Shown here piece by piece: positions 20,608 to 43,964 of a DNA stretch of 45,405 nt. Within the stretch, counting starts at the first letter, position 1. Every line of letters starts with the position of its first letter. The DNA lies in the NCBI GenBank assembly GCA_049687655.1, contig JBAVJG010000018.1, positions 1 to 45,405 on the forward strand. Reading direction: 5' to 3'. A program made the position numbers and the translations under genes. The notes beneath the pieces were generated by a model. The model did not search any database. It was given only the letters and a program-made list of their open reading frames with translations, and was not told the DNA's origin. The stretch is from Anaerolineales bacterium (GTDB taxonomy: Bacteria > Chloroflexota > Anaerolineae > Anaerolineales > Villigracilaceae).

Positions 20608-20614
20608 TTCTAGG

Positions 20615-20687
20615 GGTGGGCGAAGGGGCTCGAACCCTCAACATCTTGCTCCACAGGCAAGCGCTCTGCCATTGAGCTACGCCCACC
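20615..20687 (-). tRNA. tRNA-His (anticodon GTG)
   Basis: A manual cloverleaf works. G-1 plus acceptor GTGGGCG/CGCCCAC, D arm GCTC-AATGGCA-GAGC, anticodon arm CTTGC-CTGTGGA-GCAAG, T arm GAGGG-TTCGAGC-CCCTT, and discriminator C pairing with G-1. CCA is not encoded. Confidence 0.9.
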
Positions 20688-22051: not shown

Positions 22052-22187
22052 GAGCGTCATTTTAGCACAAGAAACCAGATATAGAGTGACATTCATGTCG
22101 CATTACATTAGCCCAGTCCCAAAATTCAGCCCTTGAATTATGTGATTCAAAGGGCTATAATCCTCGCATTCCTTTAAGGAGTATTTC

Positions 22188-24478: not shown

Positions 24479-27400
24479 ATGGAACTTTTGCAAAACACAC
24501 CAGCCTCCAAAGTAGCGCCAATCTCCTACGATTTTTTCTTCAACAATCTTGAATACTACTTGAGCAAAGGCAGGGGCGTCTCTCTTTTTGAGGCAGATGA
24601 GATCGCTATCACAAGCTTTGCGGATCAATGCGTGCGATATGGCTGCTCACCGATTACGCTCAGACTCTCATCCCTGGGGGATTCCATACCGGAACTTACC
24701 GGATCGAATGGTTTCGTTGTCATTATACAAGACCTGCCTTTTGAGAATTTTCTGCAGCAGGCCGCAGTCATCGCTGACAAGCTCATATTCCCGTTCTGGT
24801 TTAATCAAATATCAATGTGCTTTTTCTCCATCCCCAGGCGCAGCGCTTACAACGACCTGCCTTTAAGCGGGGATGAACTGCATAAAAATTATGGAACGGT
24901 GATCAATTCCCTTCTGTGCGAGCAGATTTTCGTCTTGCTTGAGCGAGTCAACATCCAATTTTCCAACTCTGACTTTATCCACCTGTCCGCACATAAAATC
25001 TTCTACACTCCTATCGAAGAAAAGCTGCTGCACGCGCTGAATATGCACAAAATGCCCTGTCAGCCCCAAGTACGGATCGGCCGCTATACGGTCGATTTCC
25101 TGGTAACTCTCGACGACGGGAACAGGAAAGTCATTGTCGAGTGCGACGGCAAAGCCTACCATGTCCCAGCCAAAGACCTAGAACGCGATAAAGTGTTTGC
25201 ATCCGAGGGCTATCCGATTTGTCACCTCTCCGGGGCAGAGATACTTGCCGATGTTGAAACTTGTATTGAGGTTATACAGAAAACGTCAAAGCATAGCCAG
25301 GCCTCTCCATATCCGTTGGATGTTGACCTGGACCCCAGCCAGATGTCGGCAGTAGGCAGCGTCACAGGGCCGATCAGGGTGTTGGCTCCGGCAGGCTCTG
25401 GAAAGACAAAAACTCTGATCAACCGTATCCTCAACCTGCTCAATCAGGGTATCCCATCCGAAAAGATCCTGGCGTTGGCGTTCAATAAAAAAGCCCGTGA
25501 TGAGATGCAGGAACGCCTGGAGCGAAAAGGTATCCACGCTATCCAAGTGCGCACCTTTCACTCCCTGGGATATGAAATCGTACGTGAAAGTCTGGGCTGG
25601 ACCTTTTCCGGGTCAGCGCATAAGAATCTCTCTCGCGATCTAATGCGGAACGCCATCCGCCAGCACACTGAGTTGCCATCCCTGCGAAATAAGGATCCCC
25701 TGGATGCGTTTCTGGATGGTTTGCGCAAGGCCAAAATGGACCTGCCTCCCCTGACCACGCTGACAGTTGAATATGGCGAGCGTATTTACCCATTTGAGCC
25801 GATATTCTATAGTTACCTGAAGGCCCAGTTGGACAGGAATTACCTGGACTTCGACGACATGATTTACCTGGCGCTGCGCGTCTTGCTGGACGATTGTTCA
25901 CTGCGTCGCGCCTACCAGTCTCACTTTGAGTTTGTCCTGGTGGATGAATTCCAGGATTTGAACCAGGCCCAATTGCTGCTGCTGCAAGTTCTGTCCCTGC
26001 CAGAAAACAACGTGTTTGCCGTCGGTGATGATGACCAGATGATTTATGGCTTTCGCGGAGCAGAGGTGCGTCATATCATCGAATTCGATAAACGCTTTCC
26101 GATTTCATCCAGCCATGTTCTGAACACGAATTACAGGTCCAGCCGCATGATCGTACGCCACACCGGCTGGCTGATCGACAAAAATAGCGACAGGGTTAGC
26201 AAAAATATTCAACCACGCCCGGGTGCGCAGGAAGGCAGTTTCGAAATATCAGGCAACACGTCAGTCCTCGAGCAAGCTGAGTATGCAGTTCATTGGCTGA
26301 TGGAACACAAAACCAGAAACAATCTTCGCTGGAGCGATTATGCTTTCCTTTATCGCTACAACGCCTATCAATTCCCGGTGGCCATCGTCCTAGATACTTT
26401 GAACATACCCCATACACCCTTGTCCGGTCAGAACCTCCTTCAAACCCGAGTAGGGAAGGATGTTTATTCATACTTGCAGGTCATCCTGTCTCCCCTCGAG
26501 GCAACTCCCAAAGACTTCGAGTGTGTGCTCAAACGCCCCAATAAATATTTCACCAACCAATTGATCGCACGTGTGCGGGACTGGAAATCTTTTCAGCATT
26601 TGCCACAGGTTCCAAACCTGAGGGACTGGGAACGGGAAAAGTTGATCGATTTCATCAGTCGAATTGAGACCTTATCCAGAAAGGCGCGGGATCAGAGCAT
26701 CTCAACGATTGATTTTCTACACACCTTAAAAATAGACCTCGGCCTGACAGATTTCTACCGAGACCAATCGCGCATATCCGAGGATCTCGACCAGGCCAGC
26801 GACGTAGATTTATTGGAAGTAATCATTGCCCTGTCCGGAAATTTCAAAACAGTGAAAGATTTTTACGAATTTGTGTGCAATTCCATCGACGACAGTGAAA
26901 CAGATTCAACGAACACCGATATAGCCAGGGATGAGGTATATCTGGGTACTATCCACCGGGCTAAAGGCAAAGAGTTCCAAAATGTCGTTTACTTTAACTT
27001 GAGCAAGAACGGTACATTTTCCGAGAAAATAAGGGAGGAAGAAGAAAGACGCGTGGCTTACGTTGGAGCAACACGTCCTAAAGATAGTTTATTGATCACT
27101 TTCCCATCCGCGAAGCCCTCGATTTTTCTCTCGGAAATATGCCTAAATCCAAAACTCAAAGGCATTACAGACGAATATCTTGAACGCTGGTCTGCTTCGA
27201 CGAAGATGCGTCTGAAGAAAGAGAGAATGAAACAAGGGCAGCTCGAACTATACAGAGAAAAACAGGTCGCCCGGTTCGAGAAATTAACAGAAGGTCATAC
27301 ATCTGATAAGGCGGCACTCTTGCTGCGATTGACATGGTTGATTGCAAATTGGCGCATCCGGATAGCACAGGAAAAGATCGAAAGCCTGAATAAACGGATC

Positions 27401-27520
27401 AGAACCCACACGGAAAAAGTCGTTGAGCCCTTGCTGGTTGAGTTGAACGATTTGGATGAGGAAATAAAGCTCAGGAAGGCGATCAAACCAGCCCCAAAAT
27501 CTGGAGATTTTGGACAATAA
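24479..27520 (+). CDS. UvrD/PcrA-type SF1 helicase with embedded DUF559 (Vsr-like) endonuclease domain and uncharacterised N-terminal domain
   Basis: Helicase motifs: APAGSGKTKT (I), VDEFQDLNQAQ (II), VGDDDQMIYGFRGA (III), NYRSS (IV), TIHRAKGKEF and YVGATRPKD (V/VI). Upstream, at about 25073..25250, is RIGRYTVDFLV...VIVECDGKAYH...ERDKVFASEGYPICHL, typical of DUF559. The first 190 aa or so have no motif I recognise. The C-terminal 100 aa or so look like charged coiled coil. Confidence 0.8.
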   Translation: MELLQNTPASKVAPISYDFFFNNLEYYLSKGRGVSLFEADEIAITSFADQCVRYGCSPITLRLSSLGDSIPELTGSNGFVVIIQDLPFENFLQQAAVIADKLIFPFWFNQISMCFFSIPRRSAYNDLPLSGDELHKNYGTVINSLLCEQIFVLLERVNIQFSNSDFIHLSAHKIFYTPIEEKLLHALNMHKMPCQPQVRIGRYTVDFLVTLDDGNRKVIVECDGKAYHVPAKDLERDKVFASEGYPICHLSGAEILADVETCIEVIQKTSKHSQASPYPLDVDLDPSQMSAVGSVTGPIRVLAPAGSGKTKTLINRILNLLNQGIPSEKILALAFNKKARDEMQERLERKGIHAIQVRTFHSLGYEIVRESLGWTFSGSAHKNLSRDLMRNAIRQHTELPSLRNKDPLDAFLDGLRKAKMDLPPLTTLTVEYGERIYPFEPIFYSYLKAQLDRNYLDFDDMIYLALRVLLDDCSLRRAYQSHFEFVLVDEFQDLNQAQLLLLQVLSLPENNVFAVGDDDQMIYGFRGAEVRHIIEFDKRFPISSSHVLNTNYRSSRMIVRHTGWLIDKNSDRVSKNIQPRPGAQEGSFEISGNTSVLEQAEYAVHWLMEHKTRNNLRWSDYAFLYRYNAYQFPVAIVLDTLNIPHTPLSGQNLLQTRVGKDVYSYLQVILSPLEATPKDFECVLKRPNKYFTNQLIARVRDWKSFQHLPQVPNLRDWEREKLIDFISRIETLSRKARDQSISTIDFLHTLKIDLGLTDFYRDQSRISEDLDQASDVDLLEVIIALSGNFKTVKDFYEFVCNSIDDSETDSTNTDIARDEVYLGTIHRAKGKEFQNVVYFNLSKNGTFSEKIREEEERRVAYVGATRPKDSLLITFPSAKPSIFLSEICLNPKLKGITDEYLERWSASTKMRLKKERMKQGQLELYREKQVARFEKLTEGHTSDKAALLLRLTWLIANWRIRIAQEKIESLNKRIRTHTEKVVEPLLVELNDLDEEIKLRKAIKPAPKSGDFGQ

Positions 27521-27575: not shown

Positions 27576-27923
27576 TTATGCCTTAGGCACTCCTAGAAAA
27601 ATCACCCCATCCCGTACCTGAACAGGGTAAGCCGGGATGTCCACAACTGCCGGCATAGACATCACCTTGCCAGTGCGAACATCGAACTCTGCTCCGTGAC
27701 GGGGGCAAACGACGTTGAAACCTTCGATGTCACCATCACCAAGCGGGCCATCGTCATGGGTACAGACGTCACCTATCGCAAATAATCCCCCGGCAATGTT
27801 AAAGATCACGATGGGTGTATCACCGATATCAACGAACATTCGCTCGCCGTTCGGTAATTCGCTGATCGGGGCGATTTCCAAAAAGTCTACTTTTTCTTCT
27901 TCAAGTTGAGTGTAGTTGAACAT
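27576..27923 (-). CDS. Rieske [2Fe-2S] domain ferredoxin
   Basis: CTHDDGPL ... CPRHGAEF (C-x-H ... C-x-x-H). 115 aa. It is the last gene of the suf operon. Confidence 0.85.
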   Translation of the reverse strand: MFNYTQLEEEKVDFLEIAPISELPNGERMFVDIGDTPIVIFNIAGGLFAIGDVCTHDDGPLGDGDIEGFNVVCPRHGAEFDVRTGKVMSMPAVVDIPAYPVQVRDGVIFLGVPKA

Positions 27924-28013
27924 GAATATCCCTCAGCAATTAGCGTTCAGCTATAAGCTCTAAACTGTAAGAGGCCAGCATTTCAAGAGAAAGCTAAACG
28001 CTTACAGCTTTTA

Positions 28014-28409
28014 CTATTCCACCAAATCATCACTGGCTTCCCCTAAACCGTATACACCAGCCTTGAGCACCTTGAGAGAAAGCAAGGCACACTTCAAACG
28101 TACAGGTCCCAGGTCGATGCCCAGTAAATCCAGCACATCTTCTTTGTTTAGCTTTTTAACTTCGTCCAAAGATTTCCCATGGATGGATTCAACCAAGAGG
28201 TCTGCAGAGGCCTGAGAGATGGCGCAGCCTTTGCCCTCAAAAGCTGCTTCGGTTACTTTGTCTTGGCCGTTAACCCGAATGGTGATTTCGATGTGATCGC
28301 CGCATAACGGATTGTCATCCTCGAACTGGATGTCGTGCGGGTCAAGATATCCGCGGAATTGCGGGCTTTTGTAGCGTTCAATGATCTGTTCGCGGTAGAG
28401 GTCGTCCAT
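28014..28409 (-). CDS. sufU: SufU (NifU-N-like) sulfur acceptor or scaffold
   Basis: Three conserved Cys in the contexts NPLCGD, GKGCAIS and RLKCALL. Confidence 0.88.
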   Translation of the reverse strand: MDDLYREQIIERYKSPQFRGYLDPHDIQFEDDNPLCGDHIEITIRVNGQDKVTEAAFEGKGCAISQASADLLVESIHGKSLDEVKKLNKEDVLDLLGIDLGPVRLKCALLSLKVLKAGVYGLGEASDDLVE

Positions 28410-28498
28410 AATCAGTCTTATAAGTCGAACAAGTCTGAGCAGTCTAACATGTCAATACCTAACCGGTTGACTTGTAAGACCATTAGACTTGCCAGACT

Positions 28499-29725
28499 TT
28501 ATCCAAAAATCTCCTTGACTTTGTATATTCCCTCGATCAGCTTGTCCACTTCTTCTTCCGTATTATAAAGATAAAAACTGGCACGTGACGTTGCGGTGAT
28601 GCCATATTTTTCATGCAATGGTTGAGCGCAATGATGACCGGCACGGACGGCGATACCATCTCGGTCAAGGATCTGCGCTACATCATGCGGATGCACACCA
28701 TCGAAGGTGAACGCAGCCACCCCGCCTTTATCCTGTGCGCTGGGGCCAAACAACTTCACCCCCGGGACTTCTTCCAATCGCTCGAGGGCATACTCCGTTA
28801 TCTCGTGTTCATGCGCGGCGATAGCCTCCATCCCGACCGAATTCAGGTAATCTACCGCCGCCCCGAAACCGACTGCCTCAGCGATGGCCGGGGTTCCAGC
28901 TTCGAACTTATGCGGAACCGAATTGGGGACGAAACCATCCAGGTGGACGGTCTTGATCATATCGCCGCCACCCAGGAACGGAGGCATTTCCTGAAGCAAA
29001 TCCATCTTGCCATACAGGGCGCCGATACCTGTTGGTCCACACATCTTATGTGCCGAGAAGGCCAGGAAATCCGCATCCAGCGCCTGGACGTCGACGGGAA
29101 AATGTGGCACGGATTGGGCTCCATCTACAAGTGTGATTGCCCCAACCTCATGCGCCAGACGGATGATCTCAGCCGCAGGGTTGATCGTACCGAGGACGTT
29201 GGACATGTGCGTAAACGAGACCAGTTTTGGGTCCTGTTTCAGAAGCGCGCGATAGGCGTCCAGGTCAAGCAGGCCATCGTCTGCCACAGGGATGAATTCG
29301 AGGCGTACCCCACGTTCCGCTTTCAGCATATGCCATGGAACAAGATTGGAGTGATGCTCCATCTCGGTCAGGATGACCAGGTCACCTGACCTAAGATTGG
29401 CGCGCGCCCAGGTGTACGCTACCAGGTTGATTGATTCGGTAGTGTTGCGGGTATAGATGACTTGTCTGGGAGAAGGCGCATTGATAAAACCGGCGATTTT
29501 TTCGCGCGCAGCCTCATACATCGCGGTCGCTTCTTCGGCCAGGGTGTGAATACCGCGATTAATGTTGGCATTTGTATGACGATAGAACGCATCCATAGCC
29601 GCGATAACGGAGGCAGGCTTTTGAGAGGTAGCGGTCGAATCGAGATAGACCACCTGAACCCCCGGCCTTGTCTCTCTGTTCAGGATGGGAAAATCAGCAC
29701 GAATGCGAGTAACGTCGAAGCTCAT
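28499..29725 (-). CDS. sufS: Cysteine desulfurase SufS (group II)
   Basis: PLP lysine in SAHKMCGPTG, and the catalytic loop RAGHHCAQP. Confidence 0.92.
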   Translation of the reverse strand: MSFDVTRIRADFPILNRETRPGVQVVYLDSTATSQKPASVIAAMDAFYRHTNANINRGIHTLAEEATAMYEAAREKIAGFINAPSPRQVIYTRNTTESINLVAYTWARANLRSGDLVILTEMEHHSNLVPWHMLKAERGVRLEFIPVADDGLLDLDAYRALLKQDPKLVSFTHMSNVLGTINPAAEIIRLAHEVGAITLVDGAQSVPHFPVDVQALDADFLAFSAHKMCGPTGIGALYGKMDLLQEMPPFLGGGDMIKTVHLDGFVPNSVPHKFEAGTPAIAEAVGFGAAVDYLNSVGMEAIAAHEHEITEYALERLEEVPGVKLFGPSAQDKGGVAAFTFDGVHPHDVAQILDRDGIAVRAGHHCAQPLHEKYGITATSRASFYLYNTEEEVDKLIEGIYKVKEIFG

Positions 29726-29845
29726 TGCAACGATTTTTTCTGATCTAGTACCCGGATCATAAGCTTATGATTGATAAACAGGAGTTACGCAGTCCTAATA
29801 AAGTGACTGTATTTGTTCATCAATCAAAAATACCTTTATCAGGCA

Positions 29846-30214
29846 CTAATAATCAGGAATCTCTTTCTCTTTTTTCTTGGGTTTCTTGCCTGGCAACGCA
29901 CGGATATGCTCAGAATTGACCGGATACCAAAGGATGCGATCCGGTACCATCCAGCCATCGGTCAGGTAAACATCACTACGGAACTGAACCGCAATCATTT
30001 TGTTGTCTATCTGGACAATGATGCCCTTCAGCCAGCCGCGTATGCGATCCTTATCTTTTTCATGATCGCAGTACACTTCGACGGTGTCTCCTACCTCGAA
30101 GGAATGCTCTATATCCGGATCACGCATATAAGAAATTTGTCCCATTCGACCTCCCCGCGTTGAGCGCCGCTTCCTGGAGCCCCGCGAATTCTGATTTGAA
30201 TGTATTGTCGCCAT
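29846..30214 (-). CDS. Hypothetical small basic protein inside the suf operon
   Basis: 122-aa ORF, or 99 aa from the ATG at 30145, which is preceded by GGGGAGG. The central block GDTVEVYCDHEKDKDRIRGWLKGIIVQIDNKMIAVQF looks like a small beta-barrel (Tudor/SH3-like). The tail is Lys-rich. I recognise no family. Confidence 0.45.
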   Translation of the reverse strand: MATIHSNQNSRGSRKRRSTRGGRMGQISYMRDPDIEHSFEVGDTVEVYCDHEKDKDRIRGWLKGIIVQIDNKMIAVQFRSDVYLTDGWMVPDRILWYPVNSEHIRALPGKKPKKKEKEIPDY

Positions 30215-30300
30215 TCTCTGCCTTATTCATTATAGATTATTTCTTGCATTGTGCACAAACATGCACAAAATGGGGTTTTGGTTTTTAGACCGGCAACTCT

Positions 30301-31647
30301 TTATTGAGCCGTCATTTTCTGGAGAATTGCAGTCTGGAACCGTTCCCTTACGCCCTCAAAAGGTATACGCTGCATGATCGGGTCGAAGAAACCTTCCACG
30401 ACCAATCGTTCAGCTTCTTTTTGCGGAATGCCGCGTGATTTCAAATAAAATAGCGGCTCTTCTTCCAGTTTTCCAATGGTCGCGCCATGCGTGCAGCGTA
30501 CATCATCGGCCAGGATCTCCAAACCAGGGATTGAGTCAGCGCGGGCTTGATCACTCAAGACTAGGTTGCGGTTAGCCTGGTAACCGTCCGTTTTTTGCGC
30601 GCCGGGCGCAACGTAAATCATACCCTGCCAGACCGAACGACTCTTGCCCTTGAGCGCGCCTTTGAACAGCAAGTCGCTAGTCGTGTCCGGGGCAAAATGG
30701 TTCTGCTGGGTATCGTGATCGAGGTGCTGTTTGCCATCCGTGAAATAGAATCCGGACATGCGGCCGTTCGATCCCCGACCGGCCAGATCCAATTCTGTAA
30801 AGTTCTTGGTCAGCCGAGAGCCGATAGCGCCGAAGATCCAATCCAGATTGGCATCGCGTTCAACGCGCGCGCGCTCGTGACTGAAATTCCAGACGTGCTT
30901 GCCCCAGGATTGCAACTCAACGAATTTCAAGTTGGCTGCCTGCTCGACTTTGATTTCAACCAAGCCTGCGTGCATTGTGTCGATACCGTCTTCTGTCGGT
31001 GAAGCAGACTCGTGAACATAGGTCACAGAAGCGCCTTCATCCACAAGCACCAGCATATGCGAAACATGAGCAAATGCGCCCGGTCCCCAATAAACGCTAT
31101 GCAGAGGTTGTTCCACCTGCACATTCCGGGGAACGTAGAGCACGACTCCATTCTGAGACAATGCACCTGCCAGAGCAGCGAATTTGCCTTCTTCCGGCTT
31201 GACGACATCTCCGAGAATACGCGCCACCAGTTCCGGGTGTTTTTCCTGTGCAGTTTTCAAGTCGGTGAATATGACGCCTTGTTTGGCAATGGATTCATCC
31301 AAATCAACCTCAACACCGCCAGGCTTTAGCACAATCTGCCCGCCGTGCTGGTCAGCGATCAGGGGTTTGAGCAAGTCATCAGGGACGGATGGCAGGTCTT
31401 TGTATGCGCCCTCCTGTGGCAACACAAATGAGTCGACCGGCAGATTGCGCAGGTCAGTTCGCCGCCAGGGTTCCTCGGTCGTCTTCGGCAAGGATAGGCG
31501 TTTAAACGCGTCCCAGGCCTGGGCCCGGTACGAAGCGAGTGAGTCGTCCTTTAATTCGGGTACATCCGCCTTTGTGAAGGTGAATTCACGTGTGGCTGAA
31601 TCCGTTCGTCTTCTTCTTGATACTACTACTTTAGGTTTGTCTGTCAT
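30301..31647 (-). CDS. sufD: Fe-S cluster assembly protein SufD
   Basis: SufB/SufD beta-helix family. C-terminal block GATIGKLEEEPLFYLKSRGIPQKEAERLVVEGF. Positioned after sufB. Confidence 0.88.
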   Translation of the reverse strand: MTDKPKVVVSRRRRTDSATREFTFTKADVPELKDDSLASYRAQAWDAFKRLSLPKTTEEPWRRTDLRNLPVDSFVLPQEGAYKDLPSVPDDLLKPLIADQHGGQIVLKPGGVEVDLDESIAKQGVIFTDLKTAQEKHPELVARILGDVVKPEEGKFAALAGALSQNGVVLYVPRNVQVEQPLHSVYWGPGAFAHVSHMLVLVDEGASVTYVHESASPTEDGIDTMHAGLVEIKVEQAANLKFVELQSWGKHVWNFSHERARVERDANLDWIFGAIGSRLTKNFTELDLAGRGSNGRMSGFYFTDGKQHLDHDTQQNHFAPDTTSDLLFKGALKGKSRSVWQGMIYVAPGAQKTDGYQANRNLVLSDQARADSIPGLEILADDVRCTHGATIGKLEEEPLFYLKSRGIPQKEAERLVVEGFFDPIMQRIPFEGVRERFQTAILQKMTAQ

Positions 31648-31668
31648 GTATATCTCTTATTACAAAGT

Positions 31669-31755
31669 GTCATTGCGAGGAGCGAAGCGACGCAGCAATC
31701 CCAGAGATACAAGTTACTTGAGATTTCCACGACCCCTTCGGGGTCTCGCAATGAG
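31669..31755. repeat. REP/MITE-like nested palindromic element in the sufB-sufD spacer
   Basis: Outer 10-bp arms tcattgcgag 31670..31679 and ctcgcaatga 31745..31754. The inner hairpin gaccccttcggggtc at 31731..31745 has a TTCG loop. The left arm continues as gagcgaagcgacgcagcaatcc. Confidence 0.6.
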
Positions 31756-31854
31756 AACATACTAGTACCGCAACCATATTAAATTGTAGGGTTAGAATTG
31801 ATTTTGTTCTTCAAAAATCAGCAGAATACTCTACAGCTTAAGGTTGTTGCGGCA

Positions 31855-33261
31855 CTAGCCTATACTACCTTCCATCTGCAACTGGATCAGGCGGTTCATT
31901 TCTACGGCGTATTCCATCGGCAGTTCTTTGACCAATGGCTCGATGAAGCCGGAAACAATCATTGTGGTGGCTTCCTCCTCACTCAGGCCGCGGGACATGA
32001 GATAGAAAAGCTGCTCATCCCCTACCTTGGAAACTGAAGCCTCGTGGCCGATGGTGACATCATCTTCGTCAATTTCGATGTAGGGATAGGTATCTGACTG
32101 TGATTGTGGATCGAGCAGCAACGCATCGCAAACCACGTTGGATTTGACGCCCTTAGCGCCTTTGTAGACCTTGAGCAGACCACGATAGGAGGCACGCCCG
32201 CCAGCCTTGCTGATGGACTTGGAAGTAATCTTGCTGGTGGTGTTGGGTGCAAAGTGATACATCTTGCTACCGGCGTCCTGAGTCTGGCCAGCGCCTGCAA
32301 ACGCCATCGAGAGCATCTCGCCACGCGCACCGGGCTCCATCAAATAGCAGGATGGGTATTTCATGGTTACTTTAGAACCCAGGTTGGCGTCCACCCATTC
32401 GTGCGTACCATTCTCGAATACTTTGGCTCGCTGAGTAACCAGGTTGTAAACGTTGGTAGACCAGTTCTGGATGGTAGTATAACGCGACCGCGCACCTTTC
32501 TTGACTACTATCTCGATCACACCGGAGTGGAACGAGTCGGTGGTATATTGCGGAGCAGTACAGCCTTCTACATAGTGTACCTGCGCGCCTTCGTCAACAA
32601 TGATGAGCGAGCGCTCGAACTGACCGACGTTGGCTATATTCAGGCGGAAGTAAGCCTGCAGGGGCAGGTCTACTTTGACACCTTTGGGCACATACACAAA
32701 GGATCCACCCGACCAGACAGCGCTGTTAAGCGCCGCCAGAGTGTTATCTTCAATCGGGATAACGGTGCCAAAATATTCACGGAACAAATCGGGGTGTTCA
32801 TGCAGGCCGTCTTCAATCGAAAGGAAGATCACACCCTGCTTTTCGAGATGCTCCTGAATGGAGTGATAAACCATTTCCGATTCATACTGCGCTCCCACAC
32901 CCGCCAAAAACTTTTGTTCAGCTTCGGGGATGCCCAGCTTGTTGAAAGTGTTCTTGATGTCATCGGGAACATTGTCCCAGGATTTTTCACTGCCTTGAGT
33001 CGGCTTGACATAGTAAAAAATGTTTTCCAGATCTAGGCCGGAAAGATCCGGTCCCCAGGTGGGCATAGGACGGCTCCGAAAATGCTCATATGCCTTCAGG
33101 CGGAAGTCGAGCATCCAACCCGGCTCGTTCTTCATCTTTGAAATTTGTTCTACAACCTCACGGCTCAAGCCTCTTTCGGCCTTGAAAAAGTAATTTTCTT
33201 CAGAGTCGTGAAAACCGTATTTATATTGTCCAATATCTTCGAGGAGCTTTTCGTCACTCAT
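31855..33261 (-). CDS. sufB: Fe-S cluster assembly scaffold SufB
   Basis: 468 aa. Blocks [27 protein letters not shown] and [20 protein letters not shown] are typical of SufB. Confidence 0.93.
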
Positions 33262-33344
33262 TTTTACCTCTCAAGTTCTGACCGCAAAGTAAGCAGAGTT
33301 ATTTCTCAATAAATCTCTGTGAGCTTTGTGGTCGCTATTGTTAA

Positions 33345-34118
33345 TTACGCTGCTACGTCCTCATACTTTTCGCGCACCCAATCATATCCCTGATCTTCCA
33401 GGTGCAAAGCCAGGTCAGGGCCGCCGGATTCAACAATTTTTCCGTCCAGCATGATGTGGACGAAATTCGGTTTGATGTAATTCAACAGGCGCTGGTAATG
33501 TGTGATGATCAGCACGCCCATGTCCGAACCCATCAAGGCGTTGACGCCATCCGCGACAATGCGTAACGCATCAATATCCAGGCCCGAATCTGTCTCATCC
33601 AATATAGCGATCTCCGGTCTGAGAGCCGCCATCTGCAAAATCTCAGCCCGCTTCTTTTCTCCGCCTGAAAAGCCATCATTTAGATAGCGTCCGGCAACAT
33701 TGTGATCCATTTTGAGCAAAGACATCTGCTCTTTGAGCATCTTACGAAACTCGGGAATCGGCATACCTTTATCTTCCGGGTTTCCAGCCTTACGTCGCGC
33801 ATTGAGCGCGGTACGCAGGAAGTTAGCTACGGTCACACCAGGGATGGCAACCGGATACTGGAACGCCAGGAACAGACCCATACGTGAACGTTCGTCCGGC
33901 GCGAGTTCGAGAATGTTCTCACCTTTGAACCAGGCCTCTCCATCGGTTACTTCGTAGCTGGGGTGTCCCATCAACGTGTAAGCCAGCGTCGACTTGCCCG
34001 TGCCATTGGGACCCATAATGGCATGGATCTCGCCTTGTTTAACTTTTAGGTCAACGCCTTTCAAGATTTCTTTGTTTTCGATATTGACGTGCAGGTTCTT
34101 GATAACCAGCTCAGACAT
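33345..34118 (-). CDS. sufC: Fe-S cluster assembly ATPase SufC
   Basis: Walker A GPNGTGKST, signature FSGGEKKR, Walker B AILDETDSGLD. The ATG at 34118 (MSELVIKNL) is preceded by AAGGAG. Confidence 0.93.
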   Translation of the reverse strand: MSELVIKNLHVNIENKEILKGVDLKVKQGEIHAIMGPNGTGKSTLAYTLMGHPSYEVTDGEAWFKGENILELAPDERSRMGLFLAFQYPVAIPGVTVANFLRTALNARRKAGNPEDKGMPIPEFRKMLKEQMSLLKMDHNVAGRYLNDGFSGGEKKRAEILQMAALRPEIAILDETDSGLDIDALRIVADGVNALMGSDMGVLIITHYQRLLNYIKPNFVHIMLDGKIVESGGPDLALHLEDQGYDWVREKYEDVAA

Positions 34119-34257
34119 GCATACTCCTTGCAAAAAAATCGCCGCCAGGGGGCGGGTGTTGTCACATTATGAATTATAGCAAAGTAGGGGGAATATGTCA
34201 ATATTTATGATATTTTTCTAGTAAATTAATTCTTCAAGATATTCGCATTTCAATGAT

Positions 34258-37293: not shown

Positions 37294-37629
37294 ATGGTAT
37301 CACAAACTCTTGCCCAGGAAGTTTCCCAACTTGAAGCGGATCTTTGTTTTGCACTTGCTGATCCAACCCGCATCCTGATTTTGTATGCGCTTGATGAGCA
37401 ATCACTTAATGTAACAGAGATCACCATCGCCTTGGACCTTACCCAACCCACTACCTCGCGTCACTTAAAGATTTTACGAGAGCGTGGTTTGGTTCATACG
37501 GAACGTCAGGGTACAACCATAACGTATCACCTGACAGACAAGCGCTTGATCGAGGCCCTGGATTTGTTAAGAAGTGTCTTGCGCGACAGACTGGCCCACC
37601 GCGCAAGCTTGATTGAAGAAATAGAATAA
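37294..37629 (+). CDS. ArsR/SmtB-family transcriptional regulator
   Basis: LADPTRILILYAL ... NVTEITIALDLTQPTTSRHLKILRERGLV. There is a single Cys (DLCFALAD). No SD is seen, and an A/T-rich -10-like sequence lies directly upstream of the ATG. Confidence 0.85.
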   Translation: MVSQTLAQEVSQLEADLCFALADPTRILILYALDEQSLNVTEITIALDLTQPTTSRHLKILRERGLVHTERQGTTITYHLTDKRLIEALDLLRSVLRDRLAHRASLIEEIE

Positions 37630-37654: not shown

Positions 37655-39106
37655 ATGAAGAAACGAAAGCCCTTTTGGCTTCTTGGCCTGGTTGGCATCG
37701 TGATTGTCATCACTGTACCGGTTGCGTATTTTTGGCCGAGAAACACTAAACCCGTGGATGATCCATGGAACAACGTGCCAACTCAAACGGTACATGTAGA
37801 CCACACAAATATCATCAATGGGCCATTTGAAAGTGGGCAGGAAGTTACCCATGCATGTCTGGAATGTCATGAAGAGGCAGCTGCGCAAGTGATAATGACC
37901 TCCCATTTCACCTGGGAAAGCGCGCCTGTCAACGTACCCTGGCGAGACGAAACGGTCACCATTGGTAAAAAGAACCAGATCAACAACTTCTGTATCGGTA
38001 CTCAGGGCAATCAGAAAAAGTGCATGACCTGTCATGTTGGCTACGGCTGGAGTGACAGCACTTTCGATTTTAACAACCCTGAGAACATAGACTGCCTGGC
38101 CTGCCATGCAGATACGGCTTCTTACGCTAAGGGCGAATACGGTTTACCGGCTGATGGCATTGACCTGGAAGCCGCTGCCCGGAGCGTGCGCGAGCCCACC
38201 CGTGACAACTGCGGCAAATGCCACTTCGATGGTGGCGGTGGTAATGGTGTAAAACACGGTGACCTCGACGAAAGCCTGTACTTCCCCACCGAAAACCTGG
38301 ACGTGCACATGGGGCGCCTCGACTTTCAGTGCACGGATTGCCATCAAACCACAGACCACCAGATTAAAGGTCGCATGGTTGCCGATAATTACACCATTAA
38401 CTCAGAAGACCAGGTGGCATGCACTGACTGTCACGATGCCGTCCAACATCAGGATGAACGCATTAATACGCATGTTGAATCCGTTGCCTGCCAAACCTGT
38501 CATATTCCCGCTATCGCGCTGGAAGATCCCACCAAAGTGACCTGGGACTGGTCCACTGCCGGTCAGGACCTGCCAGAAGACCACTTCACCTACTTGAAAA
38601 TCAAAGGCAACTTTACGTACGAAAAGGACTATCAACCAACCTACGTGTGGTTCAACGGGAATTTATCCTACCGCTACCTGCTGGGCGACAAGCTGGATCC
38701 GTCCAAGCCCACCATGATTGACCTGCCCGCAGGCGATATTAAAGACACCGCGGCCAAAATATTCCCATTCAAGATCCACGTCGCAAAGCAACCCTATGAC
38801 ACCGTCAATAACATCTTGCTCCAGCCTCGCACAGGTGGCAACGCAGTGGCTGGCGGTGGTTTCTGGGAAACTTTTGACTGGCCCTCCGCACTCGAATTGG
38901 GTGCACAGGATGCCGGCCTGGAATATAGCGGTCAATACGGTTTCATAGAAACCTGGATGTACTGGCCTACCACCCACATGGTCCAGCCGAAAGAGAATGC
39001 CCTGGGCTGCGACGATTGCCACGGCGAAGATGGCCGCATGGATTGGGAAGCCCTGGGTTATCCCGGCGACCCAATCGAATGGGGCGGCCGTTTTGACAAG
39101 CAATAA
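37655..39106 (+). CDS. Membrane-anchored octahaem c-type cytochrome, resembling the tetrathionate-reductase (Otr) family
   Basis: N-terminal hydrophobic anchor and eight CXXCH motifs (CLECH, CMTCH, CLACH, CGKCH, CTDCH, CTDCH, CQTCH, CDDCH) in 483 aa. Size, haem count and the CGKCHFDGGGGNGVKHGD block fit my recollection of the Otr-type octahaem family. This was not verified by search. Confidence 0.7.
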   Translation: MKKRKPFWLLGLVGIVIVITVPVAYFWPRNTKPVDDPWNNVPTQTVHVDHTNIINGPFESGQEVTHACLECHEEAAAQVIMTSHFTWESAPVNVPWRDETVTIGKKNQINNFCIGTQGNQKKCMTCHVGYGWSDSTFDFNNPENIDCLACHADTASYAKGEYGLPADGIDLEAAARSVREPTRDNCGKCHFDGGGGNGVKHGDLDESLYFPTENLDVHMGRLDFQCTDCHQTTDHQIKGRMVADNYTINSEDQVACTDCHDAVQHQDERINTHVESVACQTCHIPAIALEDPTKVTWDWSTAGQDLPEDHFTYLKIKGNFTYEKDYQPTYVWFNGNLSYRYLLGDKLDPSKPTMIDLPAGDIKDTAAKIFPFKIHVAKQPYDTVNNILLQPRTGGNAVAGGGFWETFDWPSALELGAQDAGLEYSGQYGFIETWMYWPTTHMVQPKENALGCDDCHGEDGRMDWEALGYPGDPIEWGGRFDKQ

Positions 39107-39130: not shown

Positions 39131-41923
39131 ATGATTATACGCATGATAAAGAATTCGAATTTCTTCAAATTTATTCTGGCAGGCCTTCTGATCGGTCTGA
39201 TCGCCCTGGGACTTGCCATCGTTATCCAGACCGCATCCGCGCGAGGAGCAGAAGCGCCCTCCCCGGCCGCTTCACCGTTGCATCCCGATTTTGCTCTGCT
39301 TGACGCAGATGGAGTCAATGTACTCGAAAGCGGCGCGCCCGTCTCCACCATGCAGACCTGCGGGCAGTGCCACGACACGGAATACATCGTCTCGCACTCC
39401 TTCCATGCTGATCTGGGGTTGTCTGATTATTTTACAACCAGCGAGATAGACGCCAGCAACGGCACATTTGGACGCTGGAATCCACTCACATACCGCTATC
39501 TGTCGCAATCTGGCGATAGCCTGCTCGATATGAGCACTCCTGAGTGGTTGATGCGCTACGGCGATCAGATTCCCGGGGGCGGGCCAGCTACGACCAGTCG
39601 CGAGGGCAGGCCGCTCGTGAGTCTGAGTCCGGATGCGAACAACCCGGAAACTAGTTTTCTTGATCCCCAAACGGGACAACCTCAGAGCTGGGATTGGTCC
39701 CAATCCGGCGTTATCGAAAACAACTGCTTCCTGTGCCATCTCGAATACCCGAACAACATAGCCCGTACATCCGCTATACGCGAAGGCGCGTTCGGCTGGG
39801 CCAACACCGCCACCCTGGCTGGAACTGGCATCGTTCTTGATGCCGGTGGCGGAAGCTACACCTTCACAACAGAAGCTTTCAATAAAAACGGCGAAGTAAA
39901 AGCCGCTGTGATCGCCCTGCAAGATCCGACAAATGAAAACTGCGCTCAGTGTCACGGACCAGTACATACCGATAGTGAACCATTCGTCTTCCAGACCACA
40001 ACACCTGAAAACGACACCACTGGTCAGATCATTTCAGGGCAGAGAATTTCCGAATCGGGCATGAATATCAGCAATAAAGATGAGCTGGCTCGTTCCTGGG
40101 ACATCCATGCAGAGCGCCAATTGCAGTGCGTGGATTGCCACTTTTCACTCAACAATCCGGTACACGAACAGGACGTCAGAGGCGCGGCCCCCGACCACCT
40201 GCTCTACGATCCGCGCCGTCTCGACATTGGCGAGTATCTTGAAAAGCCCAATCACAACTTTGCCCGCGGTCAAAGCGCCCAATTCACCGTAGCCCCGGAA
40301 CTCAAAGGCAGCATGCGTCGCTGTGAATCCTGTCACGATAGCGATAAGGGTCACGCCGACTGGCTGCCTTACATCGATCGTCACATGGAAGTGGTGGCTT
40401 GCGAAACCTGCCACATCCCACAGCTATATGCACCCGCGATCCAGGATTACGACTGGACAGGGGTCACTACGGACGGCCAGGCACAGATCGTCTATCGAGG
40501 CATCGAAGCCGGAAGCGTCGAAACAGCCAGCCTGGTCGACATGCCGATCACGGTCACCAATCTGGTAACCGGCTACGAACCCATCCTGCTTAAACGCACC
40601 AATGTGGATGGGGACACGCTGCTGGCTCCGTACAACCTGGTGACGACCTGGTACTGGGTGTATGACGATGCGAACGGCAACACCCGTCCGATTCGTCTCC
40701 TGGACCTGGAAACTGCGTGGCTCGAAAATGGTACGTACGCGACTGAAATTATTTCCGTATTCGATGCCAACAATGATGGCGAGCTTTCCAAAGCAGAGTT
40801 GCGCATCGACTCATCTGAAAAAGAATCCCTGATTACCGGAAGGCTGTCAGCATTGGGATTGAGTAATCCGCGCATCGAAGGCCAGATACAACCATACTCT
40901 ATCAACCACAACGTCGCGCGCAGCGAATGGGCTGTAAATGACTGTCAGTCCTGTCACAGCAACGAATCGCGCATAACGCAACCCATCAAACTGGCGGATT
41001 ATGTTCCCGCTAACGTGACACCTGAATTCGTTACCGACAGCAATGTTCCACAAACCGGTGAAATGTATACGGACGCTTCCGGTGCATTGTATTATCGGCC
41101 TGTACCAACAAATGAAAATATGTATATCTTCGGCAACAGCCGTATAGGCTGGGTGGACTGGTTTGGAGGATTATTCTTCCTGGCCGTCGTCTTGGGGATC
41201 AGTGGTCACGGAACATTGCGCTACGTTTCATCATTACGCAAGCCAAAACATGATGTAGAAACTGAAAAAGTTTACATGTACCATAAGTACGAGCGTTTCT
41301 GGCACTGGCTACAAACTGTGCTGATCGTGCTGCTCTTACTCACTGGCCTGGTCATCCACCGGCCGGATATGTTCGGTGCATTATCTTTCCGCGGAATGGT
41401 CACCATGCATAACGTCATGGCTGGTATCCTGGCGCTCAATGCTGCCCTGGCCCTGTTCTATCATGTGACGACCGGCGAAGTGAAACAATATATCCCGCGT
41501 CCGTACGGCTTCTTCAACGACGCCATCTTGCAGACCAAGTTCTACCTGAATGGCATCTTCAAGGGTGCAGAACATCCCTTCGAGAAGACAGAGCGCAAAA
41601 AGCTAAATCCGCTTCAGCAAGTGACCTACTTTGGAATCCTGAACGTGCTGCTTCCGCTGCAAGGCCTGACCGGCATCCTGATGTGGGGTGTCCAACGTTG
41701 GCCTGGGGCTACAAACATGCTCGGCGGTCTGCCTTTCCTGGCACCCTTCCACACGCTGTTGGCCTGGACGTTTGCGGCCTTCATTATCGGTCACGTCTAT
41801 CTGACGACTACCGGGCGCGAACCGCTGGAAGGCGTCAAAAGCATGGTCACCGGCTGGGAAGATGTCGAAGTGCATGCACCTGAACTAGCACCTATTGAAT
41901 CTGAAGAGAAACCGGCTAAATAA
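39131..41923 (+). CDS. Heptahaem cytochrome c fused to a C-terminal dihaem cytochrome b (Ni/Fe-hydrogenase/FdnI-type) membrane domain
   Basis: Signal peptide ending ASARG. Seven CXXCH motifs (CGQCH, CFLCH, CAQCH, CVDCH, CESCH, CETCH, CQSCH). About five helices follow, with conserved His (ERFWHW, MHNV, PFHTLL, IGHVYLT), typical of the b-type cytochrome family. Confidence 0.8.
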   Translation: MIIRMIKNSNFFKFILAGLLIGLIALGLAIVIQTASARGAEAPSPAASPLHPDFALLDADGVNVLESGAPVSTMQTCGQCHDTEYIVSHSFHADLGLSDYFTTSEIDASNGTFGRWNPLTYRYLSQSGDSLLDMSTPEWLMRYGDQIPGGGPATTSREGRPLVSLSPDANNPETSFLDPQTGQPQSWDWSQSGVIENNCFLCHLEYPNNIARTSAIREGAFGWANTATLAGTGIVLDAGGGSYTFTTEAFNKNGEVKAAVIALQDPTNENCAQCHGPVHTDSEPFVFQTTTPENDTTGQIISGQRISESGMNISNKDELARSWDIHAERQLQCVDCHFSLNNPVHEQDVRGAAPDHLLYDPRRLDIGEYLEKPNHNFARGQSAQFTVAPELKGSMRRCESCHDSDKGHADWLPYIDRHMEVVACETCHIPQLYAPAIQDYDWTGVTTDGQAQIVYRGIEAGSVETASLVDMPITVTNLVTGYEPILLKRTNVDGDTLLAPYNLVTTWYWVYDDANGNTRPIRLLDLETAWLENGTYATEIISVFDANNDGELSKAELRIDSSEKESLITGRLSALGLSNPRIEGQIQPYSINHNVARSEWAVNDCQSCHSNESRITQPIKLADYVPANVTPEFVTDSNVPQTGEMYTDASGALYYRPVPTNENMYIFGNSRIGWVDWFGGLFFLAVVLGISGHGTLRYVSSLRKPKHDVETEKVYMYHKYERFWHWLQTVLIVLLLLTGLVIHRPDMFGALSFRGMVTMHNVMAGILALNAALALFYHVTTGEVKQYIPRPYGFFNDAILQTKFYLNGIFKGAEHPFEKTERKKLNPLQQVTYFGILNVLLPLQGLTGILMWGVQRWPGATNMLGGLPFLAPFHTLLAWTFAAFIIGHVYLTTTGREPLEGVKSMVTGWEDVEVHAPELAPIESEEKPAK

Positions 41924-41970: not shown

Positions 41971-42543
41971 ATGGCAACACATTCACCTGTAAAACAAAAG
42001 AAAGGCATCAGCCTGAGAGCCTTATTCAACCGGCCAGAAAAACCGTACTGGCATCCATACTTTGGCGGGTTGGTACTGGGCATTGTCCTGTTCATGGCCT
42101 TCTTCCTGACTGGAAACGGCCTGGGCGCTTCGGGCGCTATCAGCCGCTTTGGTGTGCTTGTCGAGGATGCTATCGCCCCCCAGCATGTAGACACCACACC
42201 TTACCTGCTCAAGATGGCTGGCGGCGAAAAGAACCCCTTGGATGATTGGATCGTACCGGTCTTCCTGGGCATGCTTGTCGGGGCCTTTGTCTCCGGTTTG
42301 CTACGCGGACGCCTCAAATTCAAGACCAATAAAGGTCCCAACATTTCGGTGCGTACCCGCTGGATGACAGCATTTATCGGTGGCACAATTTTCCTATATG
42401 GCGCGCGCCTGGCACGCGGATGTACTTCAGGTCAGGCCCTCTCCGGTGGCGCGACCCTGGCTGCCGGATCGTGGTTGGTAATGTTCGCCATCTTTGGCGG
42501 CGCTTACGGCCTGGCCTACTTTGTACGCAAACTGTGGCTATAA
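41971..42543 (+). CDS. YeeE/YedE-family sulfur-transport protein (half-size subunit A)
   Basis: Polytopic membrane protein with GLGASGA and ARGCTSGQALSGG motifs, characteristic of the Sulf_transp family. Confidence 0.8.
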   Translation: MATHSPVKQKKGISLRALFNRPEKPYWHPYFGGLVLGIVLFMAFFLTGNGLGASGAISRFGVLVEDAIAPQHVDTTPYLLKMAGGEKNPLDDWIVPVFLGMLVGAFVSGLLRGRLKFKTNKGPNISVRTRWMTAFIGGTIFLYGARLARGCTSGQALSGGATLAAGSWLVMFAIFGGAYGLAYFVRKLWL

Positions 42544-42553
42544 GGAGAATGTC

Positions 42554-43879
42554 ATGAATTTTCCTCTAGAAGCTTTTCAAACTGTTAGCGCCAGCAATCT
42601 GTGGACTTATATTATCTTCGGATTGATCGGTGTTGCCTTCGGGTTTGTGCTCGAAAGCAGCGGTTTTGGCAACTCCAAGATACTGGCAGCCCAGTTCTAT
42701 TTCAAGAATCTGACCGTCCTTAAAGTGATGTTCACTGCCATAGTTGTTGCGATGGTTTTACTCTTCGCAATGATTGGTCTCGGCCTGTTGGATTACAACG
42801 CGATCTGGGTCAACCCTACCTACCTGGCATCCGGTGTGATTGGCGGTCTGGTAATGGGCGTGGGCTTCATCATAGGCGGGTTCTGACCGGGCACTTCTGT
42901 GGCTAGTTCAGCCACTGGCAAAATTGATGGTATGTTTTTCCTGCTCGGCGGTTTCTTTGGCGCATTCCTGTTTGGTGAGACCGAAAAATATTTCGATACC
43001 TGGTATAACTACGCCGGATATTACGGCCGTGTGACCCTGGATCAGGTTTTCAATCTCCCGCTTGGTGTAGTAGTCTTGTTGGTCGTGCTGATGGCGTTGT
43101 TTATGTTCTGGGGTGGAGAACAACTGGAACGCATCTTCGGCGGTCGTGACCTGAGCAAGGAACCCAAACTGCGTATCGTAGGCGCAGGTGCTTTGTTTGT
43201 ATTGGCCGTGGGCGTCATCCTGATCGGCTCCCCCAGCCTGGATGAAAAATACACCCGAGCCTCGATCACACGTACATATGTCCAGGAAGCCCCGGAAGGC
43301 ACGACAGAGGAAGAATTACAGGCGCTGGAGCCCCTCCAGGTGAAATTAAGTCCCGACGAGGCGCTGGCAAGGCGTGAAATGCAAATCTCGCCCGCTGAAT
43401 TGTTCACCACGCTGCACGACCAGAAGCTAAAACCTGTCATGTTGGACGTCCGTCCGGAAGCGCAATACAACCTCTTCCACATTCGAGGCGCACAAAATAT
43501 CCAGGTAAGTGAACTGCCCACTTACGCGAAAGAGCTGATCGCGGAGTACGCGCCTAATCGTGTCATCGTTGTGATGAGTAATGACGAGACAAACGCCACC
43601 CAGGCTTGGAAAGTATTGGTCGCTGAAAGGGTTTCAAACGTGTATATCCTGGAAGGCGGACTGAACAACTGGATCGCATTCTTCGGCGCGGAGGATCGCA
43701 ACATCGAGGGCAAAGTGGCCAGCCCGGCAAACGATCAATTGGAATATATCTTCCCGGCTGCATTGGGCGACCGTTATGAGTGTTCAGATCCGAGCCCCAT
43801 CAAATTCGAAGAGTTGGAATTTGAACCCAAGATTCAACTGCAACTCAAACGAGACAAGAGTGGCGGTGGCTGCGGGTAA
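42554..43879 (+). CDS. YeeE/YedE-family subunit B fused to a rhodanese-like domain, with an in-frame TGA at 42884..42886 (candidate selenocysteine, or else a nonsense mutation)
   Basis: ORF-track entries 42494..42886 and 42899..43879 are in the same frame and separated only by this TGA. The read-through product reads GVIGGLVMGVGFIIGGF-U-PGTSVASSATG. The U aligns with the Cys of FIGGTIFLYGARLARG-C-TSGQ in subunit A, with the same 12-residue spacing after the IGG motif. The ATG at 42554 follows AAGGAG. Confidence 0.6.
42899..42915 (+). promoter_or_regulatory. SECIS-like hairpin downstream of the in-frame TGA
   Basis: GUGGCU-AGUUC-AGCCAC is a 17-nt stem-loop with a perfect 6-bp stem. It starts 12 nt after the UGA, and GU in the apical loop falls at positions 23-24 counted from the U of UGA. 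Confidence 0.5.
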
Positions 43880-43905
43880 GCGAGCGATATCCCTTTAAAC
43901 CATCG

Positions 43906-43935
43906 AACCCTGAAGGATGTACATCCTTCAGGGTT
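43906..43935. terminator. Terminator hairpin between convergent genes
   Basis: Perfect 30-nt palindrome aaccctgaaggatgt/acatccttcagggtt, followed by ttctcattt on the plus strand. Confidence 0.8.
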
Positions 43936-43964
43936 TTCTCATTTGCACATAATTTTCAAAGGCA

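Follow-up and report, generated by a model that had tools for sequence, protein, structure and literature searches.

An in-frame UGA at the pore cysteine of a half-size YeeE/YedE transporter of Anaerolineales-type Chloroflexota as a candidate selenocysteine codon

The window analyzed here is the complete stretch of 45,405 nucleotides (45 kb) of contig JBAVJG010000018.1 from an Anaerolineales bacterium (assembly GCA_049687655.1), in which 38 genes were annotated with Pfam. One of these genes, located on the forward strand (42554..43879) and encoding a membrane protein of the YeeE/YedE family, carries an in-frame UGA at codon 111 (42884-42886). Based on sequence comparison, this codon is very probably decoded as selenocysteine (Sec). 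The candidate had been proposed in an earlier note made from the letters of the window, and the comparative evidence presented here supports it.

The read-through gene consists of 441 codons and the stop codon TAA (43877-43879). Direct reading of the sequence reveals the Shine-Dalgarno motif AAGGAG (42542..42547) 6 nucleotides (nt) upstream of the start codon ATG 42554. By translation, the TGA was confirmed to be the sole interruption of the frame, and it lies within the conserved pore motif IIGGF-TGA-PGTS, both as described in the earlier note. For the Pfam annotation of the 441-residue product, Cys was substituted at codon 111. The product matches Sulf_transp (PF04143) with 58.2 bits (gathering threshold 27) over profile positions 2-156, which places a PmpB-like N-terminal half of a YeeE/YedE membrane domain at residues ~17-225. 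More than 5000 homologues are present in the databases, the best of which are 65-81% identical, single proteins of ~440 residues from metagenome-assembled genomes of Anaerolineales and other Chloroflexota. The closest match among the GTDB species representatives is a Cys form with 78% identity. In public assemblies, gene callers report products of 110 and 315 or 325 amino acids in place of the full-length gene.

TGA-containing relatives can be found because public gene calling yields two products from the locus. Ten further TGA contigs were obtained by a scan of metagenome contigs for the pattern GVGFIxGGF-TGA-P. Together with the window, three near-identical Logan assemblies and an orthologue present in two JGI metagenome contigs (L001 and L002), the TGA set comprises 16 contigs, i.e., the window and 15 others, with seven distinct TGA forms. 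The downstream frame is open in all of them. The codon-111 column is occupied by TGC or TGT in all 79 genome-derived homologues used for comparison, so that the column forms a Sec/Cys pair, as is characteristic of selenoprotein genes. The Logan assemblies originate from different sequencing runs and are 99.1-99.8% identical to the window, whereas the JGI contigs share 81-82% nucleotide identity with it and contain an identical downstream hairpin. As the three independent assemblies and both JGI contigs carry the TGA, a sequencing error, which the earlier note had considered, is excluded.

In a neighbor-joining tree of the TGA and Cys forms, the TGA forms fall into three clades, and Cys and TGA alternate at the column across homologues, which the earlier note had named as a check. 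Clade A, to which the window belongs, is nested among Cys forms, the nearest of which (L078) is 83-85% identical over a region of 183 codons. Clade B contains four contigs (L006, L008, L013, and L011), in which the rhodanese fusion described below is also present. Clade C is composed of six short proteins of ~200 amino acids that lack the rhodanese-like domain.

The sequence past the TGA evolves like a coding sequence. For codons 12-87 past the TGA, comparison of the window with L001 resulted in a synonymous fraction of 0.28-0.50 and a non-synonymous fraction of 0-0.06. Thus, the UGA is kept in diverged orthologues with an intact downstream frame under purifying selection, which is a second characteristic of selenoprotein genes. 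The 12-nt spacer between the UGA and the hairpin (CCGGGCACTTCT, 42887..42898, forward strand) encodes Pro-Gly-Thr-Ser and would remain untranslated if the UGA were to terminate. Across the TGA lineages, its codons show synonymous changes only (CCG/CCA, GGC/GGT, ACT/ACA, and TCT/TCA/TCG/AGT for Ser), and therefore selection at the protein level acts directly past the TGA. This pattern would not be expected if translation halted at the TGA and restarted later. Since TGA is the stop codon of 10 of the 38 window genes, the genetic code is standard.

A hairpin of 17 nt (GUGGCU-AGUUC-AGCCAC, 42899..42915, forward strand) resembling a selenocysteine insertion sequence (SECIS) starts 12 nt past the TGA. 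It has a 6-bp stem and a 5-nt loop (42905-42909), with G23 and U24, counted from the U of the UGA, at positions 42906 and 42907; position and loop were thus correctly given in the earlier note. The published consensus for bacterial SECIS elements (bSECIS) comprises an upper stem of 4-16 bp and an apical loop of 3-9 nt, in which a G occurs within the first two positions and usually precedes a G or U. It further includes a UGA-loop spacing of 16-37 nt and a folding energy of -7.5 kcal/mol or lower (PMC13188914). According to a structural study of SelB, the stem has 6-8 bp and the conserved loop G is located ~20 nt past the UGA (PMC4605307). With the loop AGUUC, a stem of 6 bp, a spacing of 18 nt and an energy between -7.7 kcal/mol (isolated 17-mer) and -9.0 kcal/mol (30-nt context), the window hairpin agrees with all four parts of the bSECIS consensus. 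The weight of the hairpin lies in its position, its loop sequence and its conservation. Thermodynamic stability was rejected as an argument due to a non-significant z-score, and because stability alone proves nothing, the case rests on comparative evidence.

In order to estimate how often such a combination occurs by chance, every TGA triplet on either strand was checked. The window contains 1629 of them, and nine are followed by a comparable hairpin. The TGA at 42884-42886 is the only one of these nine that has extended open frames on either side (134 codons before it and 330 after it), and the remaining ones include terminator-like hairpins past ordinary stops. A search of the window for in-frame TGA codons with long flanking frames and for TGA codons followed by a hairpin yielded no other selenoprotein gene.

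A minimum-energy fold with an (N)G[G/U] loop at 19-26 nt from the U of the UGA was found in six of the seven distinct TGA forms and in one of the 78 distinct Cys forms (Fisher p = 1e-7, for sequences that are phylogenetically non-independent), which bears out the SECIS-like character claimed for the hairpin in the earlier note. The stems differ between the clades. Within clade B, the hairpin reads GGUGGC-AGUU-GCCACC in L006 and L008, GGUAGC-AGUU-GCUACC in L013 and UCGUCG-GUU-CGGCGA in L011, and the clade C hairpin is CGUGCGC-AGUU-GCGAACG with one G.A mismatch. In clades B and C, the loop begins at nt 24 from the UGA, as compared to nt 22 in clade A, and it is built from differing codon pairs (AGU-UCA, GCA-GUU, and GGU-UCG). 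These differences in register and codon pairs suggest that the element arose repeatedly or was remodeled. Due to the different register, lineage A could not be pooled with B and C for the analysis of covariation. In the alignment of clades B and C, 90.5% of the cells of the seven stem pairs are paired, compared to 17-52% when the 3′ partner is slid, and both sides have changed in two of the seven pairs (UA/GC and CG/AU/GC). As there are only about three independent stem versions, the power of this test is low.

Synonymous change is suppressed over the hairpin in the TGA forms. In the twelve hairpin codons (0-11), it amounts to 0.08 in clade A (flanks 0.28-0.50) and 0.13 in clade C (flanks 0.27-0.43), whereas the same twelve codons of the Cys forms show values of 0.39-0.52 and hence no suppression. 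Furthermore, the hairpin codons of the TGA forms carry amino acid changes (Ser-Ser, Ala-Val, and Gly-Ser) that create the GUU loop.

The site affected corresponds to a central pore cysteine of YeeE. Upstream of the read-through gene, on the same strand, a PmpA-like paralog of 190 amino acids is encoded (41971..42543), which corresponds to the C-terminal half of YeeE/YedE (Sulf_transp, 85.3 bits, profile positions 162-309). Its Cys151 is encoded by TGT (42421-42423) within the motif RGCTSG, and the spacing between the IGG motif and Cys or Sec is twelve residues in both proteins, in agreement with the earlier note. In YeeE, the pore cysteines are arranged in line, ~7 angstroms apart at the narrowest point, and C91 and C293 are essential (PMC7449682). 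HMMER alignments to the structure 6LEO place residue 111 on Cys91 of S. thermophila YeeE (GGF-C-PGT vs. AGG-C-ASG) and Cys151 of the paralog on Cys293; the E-values are weak (0.02 and 0.002), but the alignment of the motifs is unambiguous. The assumption of the earlier note that a functionally central Cys is concerned is consequently upheld. The half-size proteins PmpB and PmpA represent the N- and C-terminal halves of YeeE, carry exactly the equivalents of C91 and C293, and have been proposed to form a heterodimer (Li, Dahl et al. 2024, PMC11582611). The window contains the same arrangement of an N-half gene with the Cys91 equivalent adjacent to a C-half gene with the Cys293 equivalent. Judged by this homology, the paralog is proposed as the heterodimer partner supplying the Cys293 equivalent.

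Several observations weigh against selenocysteine at codon 111. The isolated 17-mer barely clears the threshold of -7.5 kcal/mol, and the fold of the 62 nt past the UGA is no better than that of shuffled sequences (z = +0.97), the hairpin being short. Owing to the G.A mismatch, the lineage C hairpins fail the strict stem criterion, and lineage A differs from lineages B/C in the hairpin register, with a shift of 2 nt. An Rfam scan of 42700-43100 gave no match, which is neutral, as no Rfam family fits the element. Regarding the insertion machinery, selA, selB, selD and tRNA-Sec were not found within the 45-kb window by Pfam annotation of the 38 genes and by ARAGORN, the only tRNA in the window being a tRNA-His. 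ARAGORN detected no tRNA-Sec in 60 related loci either, and crude motif scans for SelA and SelD over 1.4 Mb of related loci revealed nothing credible; these negatives cover the window and related loci and are uninformative for the host genome as a whole. At the level of the class, a Sec system in the organism of the window is indirectly supported by analogy, since SelD, SelA and SelB have been reported together with four selenoproteins for Anaerolinea thermophila UNI-1 and with three selenoproteins for Caldilinea aerophila (PMC5029168, Tables S1 and S2).

Other explanations of the interrupted frame were considered. If the TGA were a true stop of a split gene, a fragment of 110 amino acids would have to assemble non-covalently with a C-terminal protein whose translation restarts at GTG 42899 or ATG 42929. 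The locus is indeed annotated by automatic callers as 110 plus 315 or 325 amino acids, start codons are available shortly past the TGA, and a separately translated protein would likewise show a conserved downstream frame. However, the break would lie inside the invariant GGF-C-PxTS motif, one residue ahead of a short pore helix, and the essential Cys91 equivalent would be lost altogether. The four codons preceding the possible start are kept at the amino acid level via synonymous changes, including the TCN/AGT serine. No Shine-Dalgarno sequence precedes GTG 42899 or ATG 42929, whereas AAGGAG is present ahead of ATG 42554, and the candidate internal start varies between lineages. As a split gene would also leave both the G/U-loop hairpin and the TGA-specific suppression of synonymous change unexplained, it is considered improbable. 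The same applies, somewhat more strongly, to read-through without selenocysteine, in which a near-cognate tRNA (Trp or Cys) or stimulation by the hairpin would lead to an ordinary amino acid at position 111. In E. coli, no stop context is leakier than UGA-C, which is present in all TGA forms, and a Sec machinery in the genome of the window is putative. Leakiness does not account for the alignment with an invariant, essential Cys, which is the standard signature of Sec, nor for the fit of the hairpin to the SelB-type consensus in loop G/U and distance. Moreover, low-level leakage would be a poor route to a structural membrane protein, and relatives within the class possess the Sec machinery.

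A decaying gene with a nonsense mutation at the Cys codon would require a single nucleotide change (TGT or TGC to TGA), and the identity of 83-85% to the closest Cys form, L078, over the 183-codon region would be compatible with such an event. Yet the TGA is retained despite a nucleotide divergence of 19% in one orthologue and is also present in two other clades, further stops or frameshifts are absent, downstream non-synonymous change is very low, and the operon terminator is located past the full-length stop. Given these comparative data, a pseudogene is effectively refuted and is highly improbable. For a sequencing or assembly error, or a TGA recoded as a sense codon, there is no argument other than the mere possibility that exists when a metagenome-derived contig is read once. 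The former is refuted by the TGA being present in six assemblies, which are independent and represent two species-level variants, and in ten further contigs, and the latter by the 10 window genes that are terminated by TGA; the probability of this explanation is close to nil.

Under the preferred interpretation of codon 111 as a Sec codon, the following course of events is proposed. As the ribosome meets the UGA, SelB with Sec-tRNASec would bind the hairpin 42899-42915 via loop nucleotides G23 and U24, Sec would be inserted at codon 111, and 330 further codons would be translated. The product would be a half-size PmpB-like membrane protein with a rhodanese-like domain on the cytoplasmic side and a C-terminal GGGCG tail, which may pair with the PmpA-like product of 41971-42543 to form an hourglass channel of the YeeE type. 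In this channel, Sec111 would take the place of the central Cys91 and Cys151 of the partner that of Cys293. It could pass thiosulfate or sulfane sulfur through the membrane and may cooperate with the co-transcribed octahaem tetrathionate reductase (OTR) and the multihaem/cytochrome b module. Under selenium scarcity, termination at the UGA would result in the 110-residue fragment.

In addition to the YeeE/YedE half, the PmpB-like protein comprises further helices, a domain resembling rhodanese (Pfam Rhodanese, 54 bits; residues 283-375, nt 43400-43678) and, at its C-terminus, an invariant GGGCG motif (43862-43876). A catalytic Cys in a CX5R loop was not found in this domain; Ser342 occupies the Cys position (MSNDE vs. 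yCGSGFRS of 6MXV), and the Ser342/MSNDE motif is nearly invariant across the family of the window protein. Within the tail, Cys440 (43871..43873, forward strand) is invariant in 45 homologues and kept in the TGA lineages B and B2; the tail is missing from the short clade C proteins. Cys440 could possibly serve as a partner thiol. A strong terminator-like hairpin with a T-run (43905..43936, forward strand) downstream of the full-length stop marks the end of the operon, and no terminator-like site was found at the internal TGA. For the closest Cys homologue (P0001), an AlphaFold2 model built with 45 sequences was confident in the rhodanese part only, with predicted local distance difference test (pLDDT) values below 50 over residues 1-160 and of 50-66 over residues 161-230. 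It was not used, since most of the membrane domain is unreliable, also in the surroundings of residue 111. When the PDB was searched with a profile, the rhodanese domain dominated and the YeeE alignment was not improved.

The cluster is headed by a gene for a regulator of the ArsR/SmtB family (37294..37629, forward strand as all genes of the cluster; Pfam HTH_5, NCBIfam HTH_metalloreg 84 bits). It is followed by a cytochrome of the OTR family (37655..39106; TIGR04315, 566 bits vs. a cut-off of 375) and by a fusion of a multihaem cytochrome c with a PhsC-like cytochrome b (39131..41923, 930 amino acids; Pfam Ni_hydr_CYTB and Cytochrome_C7), which matches the NCBIfam thiosulfate reductase cytochrome b subunit with 4e-45. 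The 930-residue fusion is unusual and shows a weak EF-hand-like match at residues 539-558. According to a 2026 review, a Sec variant annotated in GenBank exists in the OTR family (WP_331457571.1); the OTR copy in the window (37655-39106) contains no in-frame TGA.

The genes ahead of the TGA gene in clade C encode a MerR regulator, a molybdoenzyme resembling PhsA, a 4Fe-4S and an NrfD subunit and a PmpA-like protein. The PhsA-like molybdopterin oxidoreductase was identified with E = 2e-144, which is under the equivalog cut-off. Instead of a cytochrome, a Phs/Psr-type reductase operon is thus present in this clade, at 1908-7254 of L009 and also at 9201-14359 of L012. In L011, a cytochrome b gene and a PmpA-like gene are located upstream of the TGA gene, and a TauE gene is found nearby. 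From these contexts it follows that the recurring partners are membrane-bound thiosulfate-, polysulfide- or tetrathionate-type reductases.

Some further loci of the window were recorded. A complete suf gene cluster for iron-sulfur assembly is located on the minus strand (27576-34133) and comprises SufC, SufB, SufD, SufS, a NifU-like gene and a Rieske protein; between sufS and sufD, two overlapping open reading frames at 29813-30214 are without a Pfam match. In the segment 19101-20686, an IS66-family transposase lies directly beside the tRNA-His (20613-20686) and hisS (20765-22096). At 238-1107, a gene for a nickel superoxide dismutase precedes one for a short S26-type peptidase that is presumably its maturation protease, and a UvrD-type helicase of 1013 residues (24479-27520) contains an N-terminal DUF559/restriction-endonuclease-like domain.

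The action of the pore cysteines in YeeE, TsuA and SoxT is debated, with a hydrogen-bond relay and covalent sulfur passing as the two models (PMC7449682, PMC11582611). A natural Sec at the position of Cys91 in several clades would be a natural variant for the comparison of these models. The side chain of Sec is largely deprotonated at physiological pH and would for this reason be unable to donate the S-H...S hydrogen bond proposed for Cys91 of YeeE. It is tentatively conceivable, although doubtful, that the pore selenol is a catalytic nucleophile instead of passively taking part in hydrogen bonding, and its selection in three clades would then imply that YeeE-type channels move sulfur by a covalent Se-S/S-S relay. 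If this were true, transport would be a group translocation with thiosulfate, tetrathionate or polysulfide as the source of the sulfane sulfur, and it would be coupled to the neighboring OTR or Phs/Psr-type reductases. In the fused forms, the cysteine of the C-terminal GGGCG motif would receive the sulfur. Such a channel would be, in effect, a membrane-embedded selenoenzyme. Since the gene sits in clusters for the respiratory reduction of sulfur compounds (OTR and cytochrome b in the window, PhsABC-like in another clade), selenium availability would thereby be linked to the tetrathionate, thiosulfate or polysulfide metabolism of anaerobic Chloroflexota. As the locus and its TGA relatives are split in every public gene call found, a selenoprotein family of Chloroflexota and other sediment bacteria would be hidden from the protein databases.

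Among the known systems, the E. coli fdhF-type SECIS and the bSECIS elements (model of Zhang and Gladyshev) resemble the window hairpin in that they lie within the coding sequence directly 3′ of the UGA and have a stem of 6-7 bp and a loop G followed by U ~20 nt past the UGA. Compared to the fdhF element, the stem in the window is shorter and weaker and has no bulged U, the register differs by 2 nt between the clades of TGA genes, and binding of SelB is putative.

Within the transporter family, the PmpA/PmpB pair of Serratia is alike in its two adjacent half-size genes, an N-half of the Cys91 type and a C-half of the Cys293 type. In contrast to Serratia, the Cys91 equivalent is encoded by UGA in the window, the N-half unit has 441 instead of ~130 amino acids due to additional helices, the rhodanese-like domain and the GGGCG tail, and the neighbors are respiratory cytochromes. 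TsuA/YeeE (6LEO, 8J4C, and E. coli YeeE) belongs to the same fold family, with C91 and C293 retained as Sec111 and Cys151; however, the window protein is half-size and not a single chain of nine helices, and the C22 equivalent is Gly. The scores for the TsuA/YeeE equivalogs are far below the cut-offs (NF041049, 15.5 bits vs. 645; NF052577, 17.7 bits vs. 400). By Pfam, no adjoining TusA/SirA-like domain (YeeD/TsuB) was detected, the neighbors being cytochromes, the paralog and a tyrosine phosphatase. The earlier note had also mentioned a link of YedE-family genes to selenium metabolism. Membership in the YedE/FdhT subfamily of selenium metabolism could not be maintained, with 20.2 bits vs. a cut-off of 350 for NF033796 and 18.9 bits vs. 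200 for TIGR04112.

A selenoprotein of the 'YeeE/YedE thiosulfate transporter family' (PF04143, GUxSG, WP_012471001.1) is already catalogued in reviews (Zhang et al., PMC9312934, PMC13188914), and therefore the finding in the window is not new in principle. Peng et al. 2016 list it for five organisms in Table S3. Neither the GOS 2008 paper nor the ISME J 2016 paper describes a YeeE selenoprotein in its main text; it is listed solely in Supplementary Table S3 of the latter, and full-text literature searches returned no paper with a further analysis of it. The catalogued protein and the window protein are alike in the Pfam family, in the replacement of a conserved Cys of the pore motif by Sec and in being computational predictions only. 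The window protein is set apart from it by the motif GGF-U-PGTS instead of the published G-U-x-S-G, by its architecture as a half-size PmpB-like unit with a rhodanese-like domain and a GGGCG tail, and by its taxon, the Anaerolineales-type Chloroflexota.

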